From a virus: a stretch of DNA of 64,000 nucleotides. The position numbers and the translations under genes are program-made. Under the pieces are notes generated by a model. It was not told where the DNA came from, made no database searches, and saw nothing but the letters and a program-made list of their open reading frames with translations. Within the stretch, counting starts at the first letter, position 1; the number at the start of each line of letters is the position of its first letter. The stretch covers positions 1-64,000 of IMG/VR virus record IMGVR_UViG_3300026097_000980; one strand, written 5' to 3'. Shown here piece by piece: positions 7,247 through 40,063 of the stretch.

Positions 7247-7885
7247 CTATTTATCGTCTAAAATATATTCGTATACCCTTCCTAAAACAGGTGAGTTTTT
7301 CATTTTTAACATTAACAGAGTATTCTTGTCTTCTACATATATGTATCTAGGATCCCAATTAAAATTATTATGTACAAACCAATTTTCTACTGAATTAGAT
7401 ATTTTGATTCTAGGTTTTTGTAAATTTAAAAAATTCAAATAACCGTATTTTGCCTCTTTGTTGTCTTTTAACACATGAGGTTTCAAGAAAGCTTTAAAAG
7501 TATAGCGATCGTGAGGCAATTTATTTGTTAAGATAGGAATAAACCCATGCTCGCTTTGAATATCTTTTCCTGTTGGTATACTGGTATATGTGATTAATTC
7601 TTCAAATTTTTCCGTCAGTGTATTATACATAGTGACATCGTTTGTGTAGATATCGATATAATTGTGTTCTACCCTCATTTGATAATTTTCTTTTTGGAAA
7701 TTATCTAGTTCCGCTAAAAACTTTCTAATAGTCGGCATATCAGCTCGGCTATAAAAGTAAGGACTGAAATCATCACTCCTCAGTGACTCTTTGAAAACCC
7801 TAATATAACCTGCACCTATAACATAAAGATTTATTTTATAATCCCATTTGTTATAAAATTTCTTTTTGGTATACTTAACCTGCAT
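7247..7885 (-). CDS. Hypothetical protein
   Basis: 212-aa ORF overlapping clpA 3' end. Confidence 0.6.
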   Translation of the reverse strand: MQVKYTKKKFYNKWDYKINLYVIGAGYIRVFKESLRSDDFSPYFYSRADMPTIRKFLAELDNFQKENYQMRVEHNYIDIYTNDVTMYNTLTEKFEELITYTSIPTGKDIQSEHGFIPILTNKLPHDRYTFKAFLKPHVLKDNKEAKYGYLNFLNLQKPRIKISNSVENWFVHNNFNWDPRYIYVEDKNTLLMLKMKNSPVLGRVYEYILDDK

Positions 7886-10121
7886 CTATCACTGTTTCCT
7901 CGTTTAACTCTTCAACACTTATGATTGTTTCGTCGTTGACTATATCAACATTTACCTTTCCGCCGTCTGCTAACTTTCCAAAAAGAATTTCTTTACTTAC
8001 TGGCTTTTTAATTTTTTCGTCTATTAATCTTGCCAGTGGCCTAGCCCCCATCTGCGGATCAAAACCTTTATCTGCTAACCAAGAAATTGCGGTGTCTGTA
8101 AGTTCTATCGTGATATTTTGATCTACTATTTGTGTGTTCATTTCGATAATGAACTTTTTAACAATCTCTTTGATTGCTTTGGAACTTAGTTTGCTAAACT
8201 TAATGACAGAATCTAATCTATTTCTAAACTCCGGACTGAAGAATTGTTTTACTGCTTTTGTGTCTTCGCCTTCTCTTTCCAAACTGCCGAAACCAATAGT
8301 ATTCTGTTCATTGTCTGCGGCACCTAAGTTAGAAGTCATTACCAGTATACAATTCCTACCGTCTGCTGTTTTGCCATTACTACCAGTAATCATTCCGTTA
8401 TCCATAAGTTGTAATAACACACCGATCACATCAGGATGAGCTTTTTCAATCTCGTCGAGCAGTAAAATACAGTTCGGATGTTCTTGCAGTTCGGTTATAA
8501 GCTTGCCTGCATTTTCTTCATATCCGACATAACCCGGAGGCGCACCGATAAATTTTGCAACAGAATGTTTTTCCTGATATTCGCTCATATCAAACCTTAC
8601 CAGTTTAAGACTTAGCAGTTTTGCAAGTTGCTTTGCAGTTTCCGTTTTGCCGCAACCTGTCGGACCTAAGAATAAAAAGTTACCGACCGGTTTGTTAGGA
8701 ACTTTAAGTCCACTTTTAGCAATAAAAATTTTATCAAGAACTGTTTCTATTGCTTCGTCTTGCCCGAATACCTTTTCTTTTAATTTGGTTTCTAGTTTGT
8801 CTAAATTTTGATTTTCTTTTATATTAATACTTTCAACCGGCATCTTGAGCATTTTGCTAATTTCAAAATGAATTTGTTCTAAATCTACCACATTCAAATC
8901 TTCCGAATCTTTTAATTTGTATCTAGCGGACGCACAGTCGATGATATCAATCGCTTTGTCTGGAAGTTTTTTATCAGACATATACTTTATAGATAATTTA
9001 ACCGCCTGCTCTATTGCCTCGTCCGTGATTACAACATTATGAAATTCTTCGTAGTATTTCTTTAACCCGTTTAGAATTTTAATGGTATCGGCTTCGCTAG
9101 GCTCTTCGATGGAGATTCTTTGAAATCTTCTCATCAACGCTCGATCAGCTTCGAAATATTTTCTATATTCTTCCCAAGTAGTGCTGGCAACCAATTTAAT
9201 AACACCCTTAGTAAGGATAGGTTTTAAAATATTTGCAAGATCGTTAGCATTTTGACTTCCACTTCCTGCGCCATTCATCATATGAGCTTCGTCGATAAAC
9301 AGAATAACGTTTCCTATAGTTTCTAATGCTTTAAGAACAGCCTTTACTCGTTCTTCAAAATCACCTCGATACTTAGCACCTGCCAGCAATGCACTAATAT
9401 CTAACGAATACACAGTATGATCATACAAAAACTTGCTTACATTTTTTTCTAAAATTTGTTTAGCAAGTCCTTCTGCAATAGCAGTTTTACCCACACCTGG
9501 ATCGCCTACCATTAACACGTTGGCTTTATTTCGTCTAGCCAAAATCAGTTGCATTTCTTCTACTTCATCGGCTCTACCGATAACTGGATCGATTTTTCCT
9601 TGTTGTGCTTTCTTAGAAAGATTTTGACAGAATTCATCAATCACTTTATTTGCAGAGGATTTATAGGTTTGTCCTTCTTCTTCTGTATCGATGTAGGTAT
9701 CTTGAAAATATGTAAGTATTTTATTTTTAGTAATTCCTGCTTGTTTCAGAAAAATACAACTATGACTGTTTTCTTCTCCTAAAATGCTAATAATTAAATC
9801 CATAGGAGAAATTTCTTGTCTACTGCTAAACAAAGCTTGTGTGAAACAACGATTTAAAACACGATCAACTGAGTGTGTTTTTTTAGGCTTATCAAAATCT
9901 GAGCCTTTGATATTTTCTAAACCGTTTTCGATGTGGTCTTTAATAGCAGATTTAAGATCTTCTAGATAATCTGAAAATTGTGCTAACTCGTCATAAGTTT
10001 CATCGTCTAACAATATTGCATATAACAAATGATCTATTGTGACATATTGATGATTGTTTTCTATCGCAATGTCTTGACTCTTTTCAAAAATAGATTCTAC
10101 ACGGTCGCTTGGTGATATCAA
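7875..10121 (-). CDS. clpA: ATP-dependent Clp protease ATP-binding subunit ClpA
   Basis: Clp N domain, GDPGVGKT / LFIDEAH, GPTGCGKT / LLLDEIEKAH, IGF loop (NTIGFG), no ClpB middle domain. Confidence 0.93.
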   Translation of the reverse strand: MISPSDRVESIFEKSQDIAIENNHQYVTIDHLLYAILLDDETYDELAQFSDYLEDLKSAIKDHIENGLENIKGSDFDKPKKTHSVDRVLNRCFTQALFSSRQEISPMDLIISILGEENSHSCIFLKQAGITKNKILTYFQDTYIDTEEEGQTYKSSANKVIDEFCQNLSKKAQQGKIDPVIGRADEVEEMQLILARRNKANVLMVGDPGVGKTAIAEGLAKQILEKNVSKFLYDHTVYSLDISALLAGAKYRGDFEERVKAVLKALETIGNVILFIDEAHMMNGAGSGSQNANDLANILKPILTKGVIKLVASTTWEEYRKYFEADRALMRRFQRISIEEPSEADTIKILNGLKKYYEEFHNVVITDEAIEQAVKLSIKYMSDKKLPDKAIDIIDCASARYKLKDSEDLNVVDLEQIHFEISKMLKMPVESINIKENQNLDKLETKLKEKVFGQDEAIETVLDKIFIAKSGLKVPNKPVGNFLFLGPTGCGKTETAKQLAKLLSLKLVRFDMSEYQEKHSVAKFIGAPPGYVGYEENAGKLITELQEHPNCILLLDEIEKAHPDVIGVLLQLMDNGMITGSNGKTADGRNCILVMTSNLGAADNEQNTIGFGSLEREGEDTKAVKQFFSPEFRNRLDSVIKFSKLSSKAIKEIVKKFIIEMNTQIVDQNITIELTDTAISWLADKGFDPQMGARPLARLIDEKIKKPVSKEILFGKLADGGKVNVDIVNDETIISVEELNEETVIDAG

Positions 10122-10171
10122 AATTTTCTCCTAGTTGCAATATGTTATTGTAATTGAATTTTCACAGTTAA

Positions 10172-10990
10172 TCAATCTTTTAAGGATTCAATTGTCTTGA
10201 TTTTACTGTGGTCCTGTATCTTCGGTATTTTTACATTTACCTTTACCAATAAGGAACCTTTCTTTCCGTTTCTAATATTCGGTATTCCTTCGCTCCTGCA
10301 AGAAAATACAGTGTCTGGTTGTGTGCCCTTTGGTATATTGATATTTAAGGTTCTGTTATCAATTGTATTTACTGCTATTTTAGTTCCTAGTATAGCATCC
10401 CAGCAAGATATTTCTTTCCGAATAATTAAGTTATCACCTTCCCTTACAAAAATTCTATGTGGTAAAACTTGGACATGAATAATGAGGTCTCCTGGGTGCA
10501 GTCCCTGTATGCTGTTATCACCCATACCTGTGTATTTTATCTGCTGTCCGTTTTGTATTCCTGCAGGTATGTTGATGTTAACAATTTTTTTATTTCCTGT
10601 AGGCATAGCTATTTCGGCATCTAGTTCTTTACCGAATACAACATCCTCTAGTGTAATTTGCAGATTAATAGAAATATTTTTGTTTTTTCTAGGTTGACGT
10701 CCAAAGCCGAAATGATTTGAAAAAATATCTTCAAAGCCTGGCGGTACGTCATTAAATCCGAATCCGAAAGGACCTTGATTTGCTTGAGGACGATTAGGGT
10801 CTATTCCTAGATCGTACTGTTGCTTTTTCTGTGGATCGCTCAGAATATCATAAGCATTTGAAATATTTTGAAATGTTCCAGGATCTCCGCCTCGGTCGGG
10901 ATGGTGTTGCATCGCTAATTTACGATATGCTTTTTTAATTTCTTGTGTAGTTGCGTTTTTAGAAACACCTAAGATGCTATAATAATCCAT
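10172..10990 (-). CDS. dnaJ: DnaJ class B (CbpA-like) co-chaperone
   Basis: DYYSILGV..KKAYRKLA..HHPD J domain; G/F region; no Zn finger. Confidence 0.92.
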   Translation of the reverse strand: MDYYSILGVSKNATTQEIKKAYRKLAMQHHPDRGGDPGTFQNISNAYDILSDPQKKQQYDLGIDPNRPQANQGPFGFGFNDVPPGFEDIFSNHFGFGRQPRKNKNISINLQITLEDVVFGKELDAEIAMPTGNKKIVNINIPAGIQNGQQIKYTGMGDNSIQGLHPGDLIIHVQVLPHRIFVREGDNLIIRKEISCWDAILGTKIAVNTIDNRTLNINIPKGTQPDTVFSCRSEGIPNIRNGKKGSLLVKVNVKIPKIQDHSKIKTIESLKD

Positions 10991-11029: not shown

Positions 11030-11386
11030 TTATTTGGATGATGTGTCTTTCTTGCCTTTTTGTGCAATAGCATCAGCACCAAAGAATGCCGAAACTAATA
11101 CAGCAATTGACGCAAAGTATGTTGGTGCAATGTCAGCAATAAGTTGAGCGGCCGTATCCAGCCCGAATGCTGATGTTAGGAAAATACCAATCGGGTAAAG
11201 TAATAGTCCGAACAGTGCAAACCATGCCATTTTACGAATAGCATCGCGTTGTGCATCTGCATCTTCTAGTTCCTTACGCTTGAATTCCAAGTGCATCTCC
11301 ATTTCTTCTTTAGAAATATGTCCGTCGCCGTTTGCGTCCATACCTTCAACGCATTCTGCGTCGATTGTTTTTTTATCTTCTGCCAT
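11030..11386 (-). CDS. Putative holin-like 2-TM protein with N-terminal EF-hand
   Basis: DANGDGHISKEE loop; two hydrophobic helices; basic C-tail; next to spanins and endolysin. Confidence 0.6.
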   Translation of the reverse strand: MAEDKKTIDAECVEGMDANGDGHISKEEMEMHLEFKRKELEDADAQRDAIRKMAWFALFGLLLYPIGIFLTSAFGLDTAAQLIADIAPTYFASIAVLVSAFFGADAIAQKGKKDTSSK

Positions 11387-11419
11387 CAAATCGCTCCTTT
11401 TAAATGGTAAAAGTATTTA

Positions 11420-11839
11420 TTATTCTAGCGGAGTTTCTGAGACCACAGTATCATCTGCGTTAGGATCCACAGCATCTTCGTAGTATACGATGATCTGTGT
11501 TTGTTGATTTATATATCTACGCATTTCTGCAATATTAAGTGCAAGATTTTCGTAGTCTTTCATTGAAAGTGCCACGAACGCAACCTCGCCGTGCCGCTCT
11601 TTAAACTCCTCAAGGAAACCATCGAGAATACGTTCGTTAACAACATATACTCTTACGTCATTGAGCTGGACTGGCTTCGGTCGGCTCACTGTCGGTACTT
11701 GTGTTTTCTCCACCTTGGTTACTACTTTGATCTCCGGCTCCGGGCTGGGTATCAGACTGCAACCAGTTAGGTAAAGGGCGGTTAGTATCACCGCCAGTAT
11801 CTTCAATGATGCCGCGCCATAGTTTTGCTGTAGCGCCAT
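11420..11839 (-). CDS. Outer-membrane spanin (Rz1-like lipoprotein)
   Basis: Lipobox LTGC after hydrophobic stretch; Pro-rich; overlaps 3' end of i-spanin in another frame. Confidence 0.75.
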   Translation of the reverse strand: MALQQNYGAASLKILAVILTALYLTGCSLIPSPEPEIKVVTKVEKTQVPTVSRPKPVQLNDVRVYVVNERILDGFLEEFKERHGEVAFVALSMKDYENLALNIAEMRRYINQQTQIIVYYEDAVDPNADDTVVSETPLE

Positions 11840-12164
11840 TCATCTTCCCTTCTAAGGTTTCCGCATCTCGCAATGCGTCTTGTACTAAATCTAATCTATT
11901 CAGCTTGCTTTGCAGTTCGTCGCCATATGCTTCAGCGGCCTGTAGGTCTGCTTGCAGTTGTTGATTTAGTTCTTGAAATTTTGCCATGTCTTGTTGAAGC
12001 ATTTCTATGCTGGCTTCTGATATTTCCACGGCTGTTTCCAATTTTGCGTTATTCTCACGCAGTGTTGCTATTGTTGCTTGTGTGCTATCATAGTAATACT
12101 TGGCACCGTATGCAAAAGTACCAAGTATTCCTATTATGAATAATGCCGCATATATTTTAAGCAT
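11658..12164 (-). CDS. Inner-membrane spanin (Rz-like)
   Basis: N-terminal TM then long coiled coil; directly downstream of endolysin. Confidence 0.75.
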   Translation of the reverse strand: MLKIYAALFIIGILGTFAYGAKYYYDSTQATIATLRENNAKLETAVEISEASIEMLQQDMAKFQELNQQLQADLQAAEAYGDELQSKLNRLDLVQDALRDAETLEGKMNGATAKLWRGIIEDTGGDTNRPLPNWLQSDTQPGAGDQSSNQGGENTSTDSEPTEASPAQ

Positions 12165-12621
12165 TAATCCCTACTGAGTATTCTGTCTTGCCGTCAATGC
12201 GAGTTGCTGTTAAGCACTCTCCGCGGTTGTCACCGTCTGCAAGATATGAGACGTGAACCCAGCCACTGTCAGGGATACCTGGAGTATAAAACTCAAGGAT
12301 TAGCTGATCAAACTCTAGGTTGTCACGGATCCATTCTGCAAGCTCAGCATTTGGTACACCTGGTACTTCAATGTCAGCCGCTTCGCCTTTGCAGTGCTGT
12401 GAACGTGAACTACCACCAACCGCTTCGTTAAGTTCTGGCGAACGATAGCCACTGTTGAGAACAGTAGGACCAAAGTGATCTCTTACCTTTTGCACAACAT
12501 TTTCAAATAGTGCAACTGCGGCATCCAGGTGCTCGCCTTGTGGCGTATTGTCGATACCTTTTCTTTCTGCTGTTTGACTTTTTGTGAATTCAGCCATTGT
12601 AAAATTTTCTGATAAACGCAT
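12157..12621 (-). CDS. Endolysin, peptidase M15A family
   Basis: SGYRS..LN..VGG...SQH..G.AAD...WVHVS. Confidence 0.88.
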   Translation of the reverse strand: MRLSENFTMAEFTKSQTAERKGIDNTPQGEHLDAAVALFENVVQKVRDHFGPTVLNSGYRSPELNEAVGGSSRSQHCKGEAADIEVPGVPNAELAEWIRDNLEFDQLILEFYTPGIPDSGWVHVSYLADGDNRGECLTATRIDGKTEYSVGINA

Positions 12622-13334: not shown

Positions 13335-13837
13335 GTTTCTAAATCCGATATTTCGTTAGACATCTCGTCTTGTGCGGGTTGTATTTTTTCGTCCGGTAAT
13401 TTGTCTTTCGGAGTGAATTCGGCGTATCTACCTTTTTGGATACTGCTCATTAGTTTCTTCGGCATAGAAATCTCTACCATCCAGACTGGAAACATATCAA
13501 TCTTTCCTTTTCTAGTACCTGGACGAATATCGTCCGGCTTACGAATTTTTCTTACTTTTTTAACTACGGATTCTGCAAATTTTACATCAATGTCGTATTG
13601 AAGCAATCTCATTCCACCTGCAGGATCTGGCATGTCTTCTTTAGGCCACATAAAAGTACATTTGACAAAATATTTACTATCATGAGGACCGGACACTAAC
13701 TCTCCGTCTTCCCAGTTATCAAATACATAAAGATTTAGTTCGTCTAGTACACGTTCAAAATCTTTTAAGATATCGAGGTAATCGTTGGAGCTGTATAAAT
13801 GTTCAATGTTAGCAATTATATCTTTGATATCGGTCAT
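13331..13837 (-). CDS. Hypothetical phage protein
   Basis: 168-aa ORF; GGAG RBS and TAAATA (13853-13858) upstream. Confidence 0.65.
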   Translation of the reverse strand: MTDIKDIIANIEHLYSSNDYLDILKDFERVLDELNLYVFDNWEDGELVSGPHDSKYFVKCTFMWPKEDMPDPAGGMRLLQYDIDVKFAESVVKKVRKIRKPDDIRPGTRKGKIDMFPVWMVEISMPKKLMSSIQKGRYAEFTPKDKLPDEKIQPAQDEMSNEISDLET

Positions 13838-13885
13838 GTTTTGTCTCCAATGTATTTATCGTTGCAATAAAACATCGGAAACTTA

Positions 13886-32700: not shown

Positions 32701-32765
32701 GGCCAATCCTGTTTTATATGAAGTATTTATTTGAAAATTTTAAAAGCCGAATGTTAAATAAGTTT

Positions 32766-38873: not shown

Positions 38874-38881
38874 ACTCTTAT

Positions 38882-40063
38882 TTATAAGACTTTGAGAAGA
38901 ATTGTGTCCTCATTTAATCTGCCAGTAAGCTTGATGTCCACAGCATTGATATCATCCATAAACTTACGAAGTGCTACCTTACCTGCTGATTTAAATTCTG
39001 CAAGTTTCTCTTCGGGTTTACGCAGAGTTTTTTGTATACTCAGTGTTTCGCTAAAGTTTGTAATACTGGTTCCTTTAACACCTAACTTTGCTCCCGTATT
39101 GTAAGGGTCGTCTACGACATATTTTCCAAGTTTACGTGTCTTTGTATTGTAGACCCATAGTTCATTCGCTGTAAGCACTTTTACAGGGTCTACGGATACC
39201 AATTTAAGCGGAGCGTGTTCCTTCATATACTTTAGCTTTTCTACAATTTTTTCTGCAGGTTTAGATCTACGGGCTTTTGGCTTGCGTTGTGCCTTCTGAG
39301 ATTCTTGTAGCATAGTACATGCAGAATCTATTTCTTCATAAAACGCAATAATGTTTTTGATTGCTTTTTTGCTTAAATGTGCATATGCTTCTTTTAACTG
39401 TTCGTCGGCACCTGCAAGCACTTCTCGCATTTCTTCCAACTCGGGAAGGTGCATATCTTTGATTAGTCTTGCATGACCCGCCTTGGCTTCTGCTTTTGTT
39501 AGTATAGTTTTCGCAGAAAACTTCTTTACGTCATAATTTTCAGGATCTGCAAACAGTTTTTCTGCTTCAGTATCTAACCCATAATTCATACTGACAGCAG
39601 TTTCCCAAGTGCGTTGCTGAATAGTTTTTACAGGTGCTTCTGGCTTTGCTTCTTCAGCTTCTATAATTTTCTCACCTTTTGCAATAGCCGCGTCGACTAA
39701 ATTCTTTAGACTTTCGCTTACTGGTTTTACTGTTCCATTAGTGCCGTCGAGTGCTTCCCAATATTCTTTGTGACCAGGATGAATATCAGGCATTCCCACA
39801 TTTAAGCATTTTGCTAACACACCCGCATAATGAAGTCCGTCTGTGCCTTGGCTACGAACCGCTTTAATATCTTCCTTGGTGTACCCATTGTCTTTCATCC
39901 AGTCGTATACATCAGGCATGAGATCGGAAGCTTTTTTCTCAATACGATAATAATCCAATGCTTGTTGTCTTACACGATTATATTCTTCACCGCTTAGTTC
40001 TAGTGCGTTCTGAAACTTAGGCAACGATGTAGTTTGTTTTTTGGGGCGTGTCTTAGTGGTCAT
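38882..40063 (-). CDS. Hypothetical phage protein
   Basis: 393-aa ORF; LWVYNTKTRKL...S.QKTLRKP; TTGACT-17-TATAAA upstream. Confidence 0.7.
   Translation of the reverse strand: MTTKTRPKKQTTSLPKFQNALELSGEEYNRVRQQALDYYRIEKKASDLMPDVYDWMKDNGYTKEDIKAVRSQGTDGLHYAGVLAKCLNVGMPDIHPGHKEYWEALDGTNGTVKPVSESLKNLVDAAIAKGEKIIEAEEAKPEAPVKTIQQRTWETAVSMNYGLDTEAEKLFADPENYDVKKFSAKTILTKAEAKAGHARLIKDMHLPELEEMREVLAGADEQLKEAYAHLSKKAIKNIIAFYEEIDSACTMLQESQKAQRKPKARRSKPAEKIVEKLKYMKEHAPLKLVSVDPVKVLTANELWVYNTKTRKLGKYVVDDPYNTGAKLGVKGTSITNFSETLSIQKTLRKPEEKLAEFKSAGKVALRKFMDDINAVDIKLTGRLNEDTILLKVL

Follow-up and report, generated by a model that had tools for sequence, protein, structure and literature searches.

An EF-hand loop in a putative holin family of aquatic phages

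The window analyzed here is the first 64 kb (64,000 nucleotides) of IMG/VR record IMGVR_UViG_3300026097_000980, a 155.5-kb viral contig with a CheckV completeness estimate of 42%. It contains a lysis cassette that ends in the gene for a protein of 118 amino acids (aa) with an EF-hand loop and two transmembrane (TM) helices. This protein is probably the holin of the cassette, or else the core subunit of a multi-part holin system. Our best reading is a holin (or core component) of class II topology with a Ca2+-sensing N-terminus, to which we attribute hole formation, Ca2+ binding and Ca2+ gating by inference from the sequence. Given the conservation of its ligands, the EF loop is likely to bind Ca2+; that it controls the timing of lysis is a tentative proposal. 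A sequence-only reading of this locus had raised both the EF-hand-bearing holin-like protein and calcium-gated lysis; the observation is confirmed here, and the interpretation is partly supported. The family is large, with 5,964 relatives at the level of 90%-identity clusters and 374 at the 50% level.

The lysis cassette and its candidate holin

Four co-directional genes on the minus strand were read from the open reading frames (ORFs), in the order endolysin, i-spanin, o-spanin and EF-loop/two-TM gene (hereafter the EF gene). The sequence-only reading had described a cassette of this composition, and all four genes were recovered in place:

12157..12621, minus strand: M15 zinc-peptidase endolysin (Peptidase_M15_3), 154 aa; PF08291 (2.5e-23) and the endolysin family phrog_894 (4.6e-43)
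11658..12164, minus strand: i-spanin, 168 aa, with a TM helix at the N-terminus and, after it, a periplasmic coiled coil; Rz-like spanin phrog_739 (1.8e-6) and phrog_89 (6e-5)
11420..11839, minus strand: o-spanin, a 139-aa lipoprotein with the lipobox LTGC; Rz-like spanin phrog_812 (6.6e-16)
11030..11386, minus strand: gene of the 118-aa EF-loop and two-TM protein, candidate holin; ATG at 11386 and Shine-Dalgarno sequence AAGGAG at 11399-11394

The o-spanin start lies inside the 3' part of the i-spanin gene, in a different frame. The o-spanin stop is separated from the EF gene by a 33-nt gap, which holds the motif ATAAATA and the AAGGAG located 7 nt upstream of the ATG. The N-terminus of the endolysin is hydrophilic and has no hydrophobic run, in agreement with the sequence-only reading; the enzyme thus reads as soluble, with neither a signal sequence nor a signal-anchor-release (SAR) sequence. 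Because this endolysin carries no export signal, a hole-forming holin is needed.

Anatomy and predicted topology

The following parts were recognized in the 118-aa protein:

11303..11338, minus strand: EF-hand loop of 12 residues, DANGDGHISKEE, residues 17-28; its ligand columns are conserved in the family
11159..11230, minus strand: TM helix 1 (TM1), approximately residues 53-76; hydropathy, conservation and a helix in the AlphaFold2 (AF2) model
11063..11131, minus strand: TM helix 2 (TM2), approximately residues 86-108; hydropathy and alignment column counts
11033..11062, minus strand: basic C-terminal tail QKGKKDTSSK, read from the sequence

In the family alignment, residues M53, W55, L58, G60, Y64 and P65 of TM1 are near-invariant. 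According to the column counts, small residues abound in TM2 and form a small-xxx-small pattern (positions 95, 99 and 103); small-residue-rich patterns are common among oligomerising membrane helices. The N-terminal head of about 52 residues has a net charge of -7. Hydropathy and the helical hairpin of the AF2 model describe a small phage protein that crosses the membrane at least once and has a charged C-terminus, as holins do.

The AF2 model was built on a 40-sequence alignment and has a mean pLDDT of 84. It consists of a short helix at residues 10-13, the loop, an unbroken helix from residue 26 to 73 that takes in TM1 as well as the EF exit helix, a tight turn, and a helix from residue 77 to 116. 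Since the exit helix is continuous with TM1 in this model, a metal-induced change in the loop would act on a membrane-crossing helix.

Across 106 family members, the mean number of lysines and arginines is 4.2 in the 15-residue stretch ahead of TM1, 0.7 in the loop between the TM helices, and 3.1 in the C-terminal tail. The positive-inside pattern is present in 90% of these members. From this distribution the positive-inside rule predicts an N-in/C-in topology that places both ends, and with them the EF loop, in the cytoplasm. Two TM helices with both termini cytoplasmic are the topology of class II holins, which the protein has as a prediction only.

Conservation of the EF-hand loop

The loop DANGDGHISKEE has D1, N3, D5, G6, I8, S9 and E12 and is followed by an exit helix; the canonical 12-residue EF-hand loop that the sequence-only reading had pointed out is therefore present. 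Among the 228 ORFs of the 155-kb contig, a PROSITE-style search pattern for EF loops matches once, compared to 0.32 occurrences expected from shuffled proteins. Taken alone, this single occurrence is not significant. We judge the loop to be real because it is conserved across homologs.

To count residues at each loop position, we used an alignment of the 150 best representatives at 50% identity, in which 112-121 sequences have a residue in a given column. Among the members that carry the segment, about 81-94% retain the expected residue at each of the six ligand and structural positions:

Loop position 1: D in 101 of 116
Loop position 3: N or D in 103 of 117
Loop position 5: D, N or S in 102 of 114
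Loop position 6: G in 91 of 112
Loop position 8: I, V or L in 114 of 121
Loop position 12: E in 100 of 113

Positions 2, 7 and 10 are free to vary in the same alignment. Conservation of ligand positions combined with freedom at non-ligand positions is the signature that selection for metal binding would leave. The loop is also found in all eight sequences of the first alignment, which contained the window protein and seven homologs from cultured phages, and in CRP-1 and CRP-9. Chains that have the loop have one copy of it, except for P0142, a database protein of 146 aa, which has two (DKNGDGIIYDRD and DLNGDGKISQEE) located 29 residues apart and before the same TM hairpin. P0142 is the sole member seen with two loops, and their spacing is that of a normal EF pair.

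Genomic context and distribution of the family

In every cultured member that is not T4-like, the EF gene adjoins endolysin, spanin or holin genes:

CRP-1 and CRP-9: EF gene, soluble endolysin, u-spanin (lipobox and C-terminal TM helix), the genes abutting one another
CRP-345: EF gene, u-spanin, endolysin
CRP-207: EF gene directly after a lysozyme
CRP-701 and CRP-810: EF gene directly before GTA_holin_3TM and a glycoside hydrolase
Limnohabitans phage DC31: EF gene two genes before an L-Ala-D-Glu peptidase

Four unrelated endolysin types share the EF gene as neighbor. It opens a three-gene cassette in CRP-1, CRP-9 and CRP-345, where it takes the position of the holin, and in CRP-9, CRP-345 and the window its product is the sole non-spanin membrane protein of the annotated cassette. 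The holin-like character proposed by the sequence-only reading is supported by this recurrence, in which the EF gene sometimes occupies the only holin slot, but not by the copies in T4-like genomes. A location in a lysis cassette was found for the window, the CRP phages and DC31, and not for the T4-like genomes, where the gene lies away from the lysis genes. The "putative lysozyme" of CRP-207 (L003:2399-2980) has an N-terminal hydrophobic segment at residues 17-35; it may be a SAR endolysin, and the EF protein of this phage would then need only to depolarise the membrane.

The cultured phages with homologs infect Pelagibacter (HTVC008M), OM43 (Melnitz), Roseobacter (CRP-1, -9, -207, -345, -701 and -810) and Limnohabitans (DC31). 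All of these homologs are annotated as "hypothetical protein". Homologs occur in podovirus-type roseophages (HMO-2011 type; PMC9038755), and the EF gene is not discussed in the paper on these phages. The pelagimyophage Melnitz carries the EF gene; in its genome paper no holin was identified, and a curli pore was proposed as a stand-in (PMC9004378). For HTVC008M, the literature search gave no match that pairs this phage with a holin.

Directly downstream of the lysis cassette, the window encodes a ClpA/B-like AAA+ chaperone (748 aa) and a full DnaJ, with J domain and C-terminal domain (7875-10990, minus strand). This arrangement is kept in the related IMG/VR contigs L023, L026-L028, L053 and L059. 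We compared 80 IMG/VR loci whose EF protein is 76-98% identical to that of the window. The linkage between spanin and EF gene is kept in 11 of these close relatives, and the whole synteny (M15 endolysin, DnaJ and Clp) in 5-7. Where syntenic relatives are without the EF gene, an unrelated protein of 105-111 aa with two TM helices, phrog_10198, takes up the slot before DnaJ (L211:5442-5759, L198:5411-5746 and L186:4149-4481). Non-homologous replacement is typical of holin slots, and this swap at the DnaJ-side slot looks like such a replacement.

A scan of genome contigs with a narrower family alignment returned 20 loci, all on aquatic contigs of metagenome-assembled genomes (MAGs) with inconsistent taxonomy. 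These copies are probably mis-binned phage DNA, and so uninformative on host or prophage state. The sequencing runs listed for the sequence are DNA runs labeled soil (possibly the source sample), saltern and marine, with no RNA run among them. A few members carry the JGI label "FtsH-binding integral membrane protein"; no family match supports this label.

Comparison with known families and systems

The nearest known kind is the class II holin by architecture and the T4 holin T by logic. With class II holins, such as the phage 21 pinholin S21-68, and with the mycobacteriophage two-TM holin-like LysF1a (PMC13056207), the EF protein shares the small size, two TM helices, the predicted N-in/C-in topology, a basic cytoplasmic C-terminal tail, a TM2 rich in small residues, and the position in a lysis cassette. 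There is no detected sequence relation to these proteins, and the EF protein adds a predicted cytoplasmic head of about 52 residues with the EF loop. The soluble endolysin of the window calls for large holes and not pinholes; moreover, the EF protein does not have the charge-changing dual-start motif. The likeness to T4 holin T and its antiholins RI and RIII (PMC11413866) is that a soluble domain receives a signal that resets the timing of lysis, and that the lysis genes of T4-like genomes are scattered. However, holin T has one TM helix and a large periplasmic domain and receives its signal via separate proteins, and it has no homology to the EF protein.

With canonical EF-hand and DxDxDG loops (EF-hand_5 and EF-hand_1; calmodulin, polcalcins and the dockerin-type "F-hand"), the window protein shares the full 12-residue loop and the exit helix. 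It differs from them in having a single loop instead of a pair, an entering helix that is short or missing, an exit helix fused to a TM helix, and scores below the Pfam cut-offs. The weak fold matches of the window protein are only to EF-hand proteins. A sequence search found no relative among solved structures; Foldseek searches of PDB and BFVD returned insignificant EF-hand rows and one unnamed homolog only, and the matches in the ESM Atlas were limited to unnamed viral clusters of its own. No paper describing an EF-hand holin was found, and holin and EF-hand occur together in no title or abstract among the matches listed.

GTA_holin_3TM (PF11351) is found in the same cassette and the same kind of host (Rhodobacterales) as the EF gene in CRP-701 and CRP-810. 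It is unrelated in sequence, belongs to a Pfam family named for three TM helices, and does not have an EF loop; the window's contig contains no copy of it.

Evidence against a calcium-sensing holin, and alternative roles

Several observations tell against the reading of the EF protein as a Ca2+-sensing holin. They are given here together with the alternatives on which they bear.

With regard to the loop, the window protein reaches 22.6 bits (E 7e-5) for EF-hand_5, below the gathering cut-off of 25.9, and 16.8 for EF-hand_1, below 25.4; on the supporting side, 13 of 40 family members match EF-hand_5 at E<0.01. The entering helix is short or absent: it is confined to residues 10-13 in the AF2 model of the window protein, and CRP-1, CRP-9 and many homologs have 4-6 residues ahead of the loop. 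About a third to 40% of the family representatives do not have the loop at all (59 of 150 in the alignment), a count in which some representatives are truncated or frameshifted database entries. P0222, however, is complete yet loop-less; its start is 2 nt past the stop of an upstream gene of 1,665 aa, which leaves no room for a loop. On a poorly resolved tree calculated from the core only (78 columns), presence of the loop is scattered, and the well-supported branches force at least six changes. Complete genes that do without the loop show that the core function cannot depend on it. What the family conserves at its core is the TM hairpin, not the soluble head, and the EF loop is best described, on the alignment, as a conserved but dispensable accessory module on a core of charged helix and TM hairpin. 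The conservation in homologs that the sequence-only reading had called for is thus found at the ligand positions where the segment is present, but does not extend to the presence of the loop itself.

These observations would suit a holin in which the EF-like loop is merely a structural or dimerisation motif, or is periplasmic and always occupied by Ca2+, in either case with no role in signaling. The many complete members that are loop-less and the many homologs in which an entering helix is missing favor this explanation, as does the net acidic head (-7), since acidity in short tails can favor export. However, conservation of exactly the Ca2+-ligand positions argues for metal binding, and the distribution of lysine and arginine puts both ends inside in 90% of the members. 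We consider a holin with a non-signaling loop unlikely.

Against the assignment as holin there are also the absence of a family match and the presence of other candidates. The window protein has no match to a holin family in Pfam, PHROG or NCBIfam; the NCBIfam search gave sub-threshold noise only, to XopAW (through the EF loop) and VC0807. PF07332 (Phage_holin_3_6) proteins likewise have about 115 aa and two TM helices. Sub-threshold matches to PF07332 were obtained for 3 of 40 family members (best E 1.8e-4), and none for the window protein. Membership was rejected in a profile-profile comparison with hhalign against 20 actinobacterial PF07332 proteins, all taken from one bacterial order (probability 0.2%, E 0.28). 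Of 61 genomes sampled from one bacterial order, 57 contained PF07332, which is therefore largely chromosomal.

A tail-anchored membrane protein of 141-160 aa, phrog_32327, recurs beside the EF gene in DC31, CRP-701, CRP-1 and the IMG/VR locus L166. The copy in the window's contig lies about 80 kb from the EF gene, beside a 206-aa TM coiled-coil protein. The copies are located as follows:

L230:2051-2476, minus strand, corresponding to approximately 90,550-90,975 of the window's contig
L007:2475-2957
L005:2252-2728
L104:1060-1521
L166:4360-4803

The phrog_32327 protein may be a partner of the EF protein, and its recurrence hints at a multi-part system. CRP-701 and CRP-810 already have a recognized holin, GTA_holin_3TM, beside the EF gene; the EF protein may be a partner or an antiholin in these two phages. 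Outside the window, at approximately 124.7-125.4 kb of the contig, there are two adjacent small membrane proteins with weak holin-like matches, which are other possible holin-type genes of this phage:

L022:1462-1785, minus strand: 107-aa two-TM protein; weak match to PF07332 (E 0.015)
L022:1124-1366, minus strand: 80-aa protein with a coiled coil and a C-terminal TM helix; weak match to the XhlA-like "hemolysin" phrog_1193 (E 0.0018)

The EF protein could accordingly be seen as an antiholin or holin regulator that responds to Ca2+ and binds a separate holin (GTA_holin_3TM, the phrog_32327 protein, or another one), which it delays or releases. In CRP-701 and CRP-810, the position directly upstream of GTA_holin_3TM and endolysin reproduces the classic order of antiholin, holin and endolysin. 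The phrog_32327 protein recurs beside the EF gene and is also encoded at approximately 90.6 kb of the window's contig, which has the other small membrane proteins with weak holin-like matches as well, and a loop that is dispensable in many members is what would be expected of a regulatory add-on. However, the cassettes of CRP-9, CRP-345 and the window have no other annotated non-spanin membrane protein, the soluble endolysins of these cassettes depend on a hole, and the family conserves the TM hairpin rather than the soluble head. A regulatory role in place of a holin is, in our judgment, unlikely. The remainder of the probability, beyond holin and antiholin, goes to other membrane functions.

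A further set of observations concerns the location of the gene. T4-like phages carry it away from the lysis genes, in scattered places. In HTVC008M, Melnitz and about 20 of the 80 IMG/VR relatives, it is part of a baseplate-hub order of gp26-like, gp51-like, EF and gp29-like genes; in about 20 further relatives it lies among nucleotide-metabolism genes, and in one T4-like lineage it follows a collagen-like fibre gene. In addition, the EF gene is within 3 kb in only 6 of 80 loci having the M15 endolysin of the window. T4-like phages ordinarily scatter their lysis genes, and for this reason the T4-like contexts are uninformative and not contradictory. EF proteins with 76-98% identity (L016-L018 and L023-L102) are encoded in at least three unrelated settings: after spanins, in a baseplate-hub operon, and among nucleotide-metabolism or auxiliary metabolic genes by an HNH endonuclease. 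This distribution indicates that the single gene often moves horizontally among marine phages as an autonomous unit.

Autonomous mobility of such similar copies would also fit a moron, a mobile accessory membrane protein for superinfection exclusion or immunity, or a small channel that alters the ion or Ca2+ balance of the host, whose copies simply tend to end up by lysis cassettes. The EF gene of the window is the last of its cassette and has its own promoter-like motif, and exclusion genes beside lysis genes have precedent in other phages. In CRP-1, CRP-9 and CRP-345, however, the EF gene leads the cassette, and the lysis gene that follows abuts or overlaps it. The T4-like contexts do not bear on the question, given that scattered lysis genes are normal there, and no match to an exclusion family was seen in the Pfam, PHROG and NCBIfam comparisons. 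We rate this explanation as decidedly unlikely.

P0121, a database protein of 162 aa, reads as a gp51-like baseplate-hub assembly catalyst fused to the EF protein; it may be a real pelagimyophage fusion, or a merged gene call or sequencing artefact. A membrane anchor or assembly factor for the T4-like tail or baseplate hub that was reused elsewhere would account for this fusion and for the position between gp51-like and gp29-like genes, but is very improbable, considering that podovirus-type roseophages and other phages that are not T4-like carry the gene in their lysis cassettes in every case and never in a tail module, that the EF gene in the window's lineage is outside any tail module, and that the fusion may be an artefact of gene calling or sequencing.

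A possible mechanism

For the preferred reading, a holin with a Ca2+-sensing N-terminus, a mechanism can be outlined. The protein would be made late and would accumulate harmlessly in the energised inner membrane. Triggering would occur through oligomerisation via the small-residue-rich TM2, giving holes large enough for the soluble M15 endolysin, and the spanins would then disrupt the outer membrane. In this scheme the EF loop would be an accessory sensor, empty until the membrane leaks or efflux fails.

Gating of the holin by Ca2+ is a possibility that we consider less likely than not. The cytoplasmic EF head would read the Ca2+ gradient between seawater and cytoplasm, and a leak would lead to pairing of the heads and from there to all-or-none triggering, or to lysis inhibition. 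Free Ca2+ is sub-micromolar in the bacterial cytoplasm and about 10 mM in seawater, so that a cytoplasmic EF loop would fill only upon a leak. The leak may stem from the holin's own nascent holes, from loss of the membrane potential, from a superinfecting phage, or from host damage. EF-hands normally pair, via the hydrophobic residue at loop position 8; the entry of Ca2+ would neutralise the acidic heads and pair them through this position. With no break between the loop helix and TM1, pairing of the heads would be passed directly to the TM helices. The outcome would be sharper or earlier triggering (a positive feedback), or inhibition instead.

A promoter-like motif upstream of the EF gene

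The motif ATAAATA in the gap upstream of the EF gene resembles T4 late promoters (11414..11420, minus strand; 28 nt before the ATG, with TAAATA at 11419-11414). ATAAATA is depleted in the window, with 10 copies compared to 25.9 expected; in none of 100 shuffles was the count below 10. The minus strand, which bears most genes, has nine of these copies, and five of the 10 are located 5-28 nt upstream of gene starts, including those of the EF gene and of the first gene of the structural and lysis run, at 13837. Examples of ATAAATA sites are:

7248-7254
11414-11420
13853-13859
32724-32730
38879-38885

The pattern is consistent with a putative T4-late-type promoter element that is avoided elsewhere. 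The EF gene of the window does have a TAAATA of its own, as the sequence-only reading had remarked; however, among 69 related loci TAAATA precedes the EF gene in only 7, and the motif is not a trait of the family.

Implications

What is new here is a holin-like family with a built-in EF-hand that is large and ecologically prominent. It is abundant and unannotated, and it occurs in phages that infect the most numerous heterotrophs of the ocean (SAR11, OM43 and roseobacters). Cultured phage-host pairs (CRP-1 and CRP-9 on Rhodobacteraceae FZCC0023, and DC31 on Limnohabitans), together with natural loop-less homologs, make the hypothesis directly testable.

The duration of the phage infection cycle is set by holins, whose timing is known to take input from their own concentration, from the membrane potential and, in T-even phages, from dedicated antiholin proteins. 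If the Ca2+-gated reading is true, a built-in Ca2+ sensor would be a new kind of input to holin timing, one that draws on the very large ion gradient found in seawater. Thousands of lineages of aquatic phages would then share this ionic input, among them pelagimyophages of SAR11 and OM43 that have no known holin. If the protein is an ordinary holin with a decorative loop, the family would still name a major missing holin family of aquatic phages.

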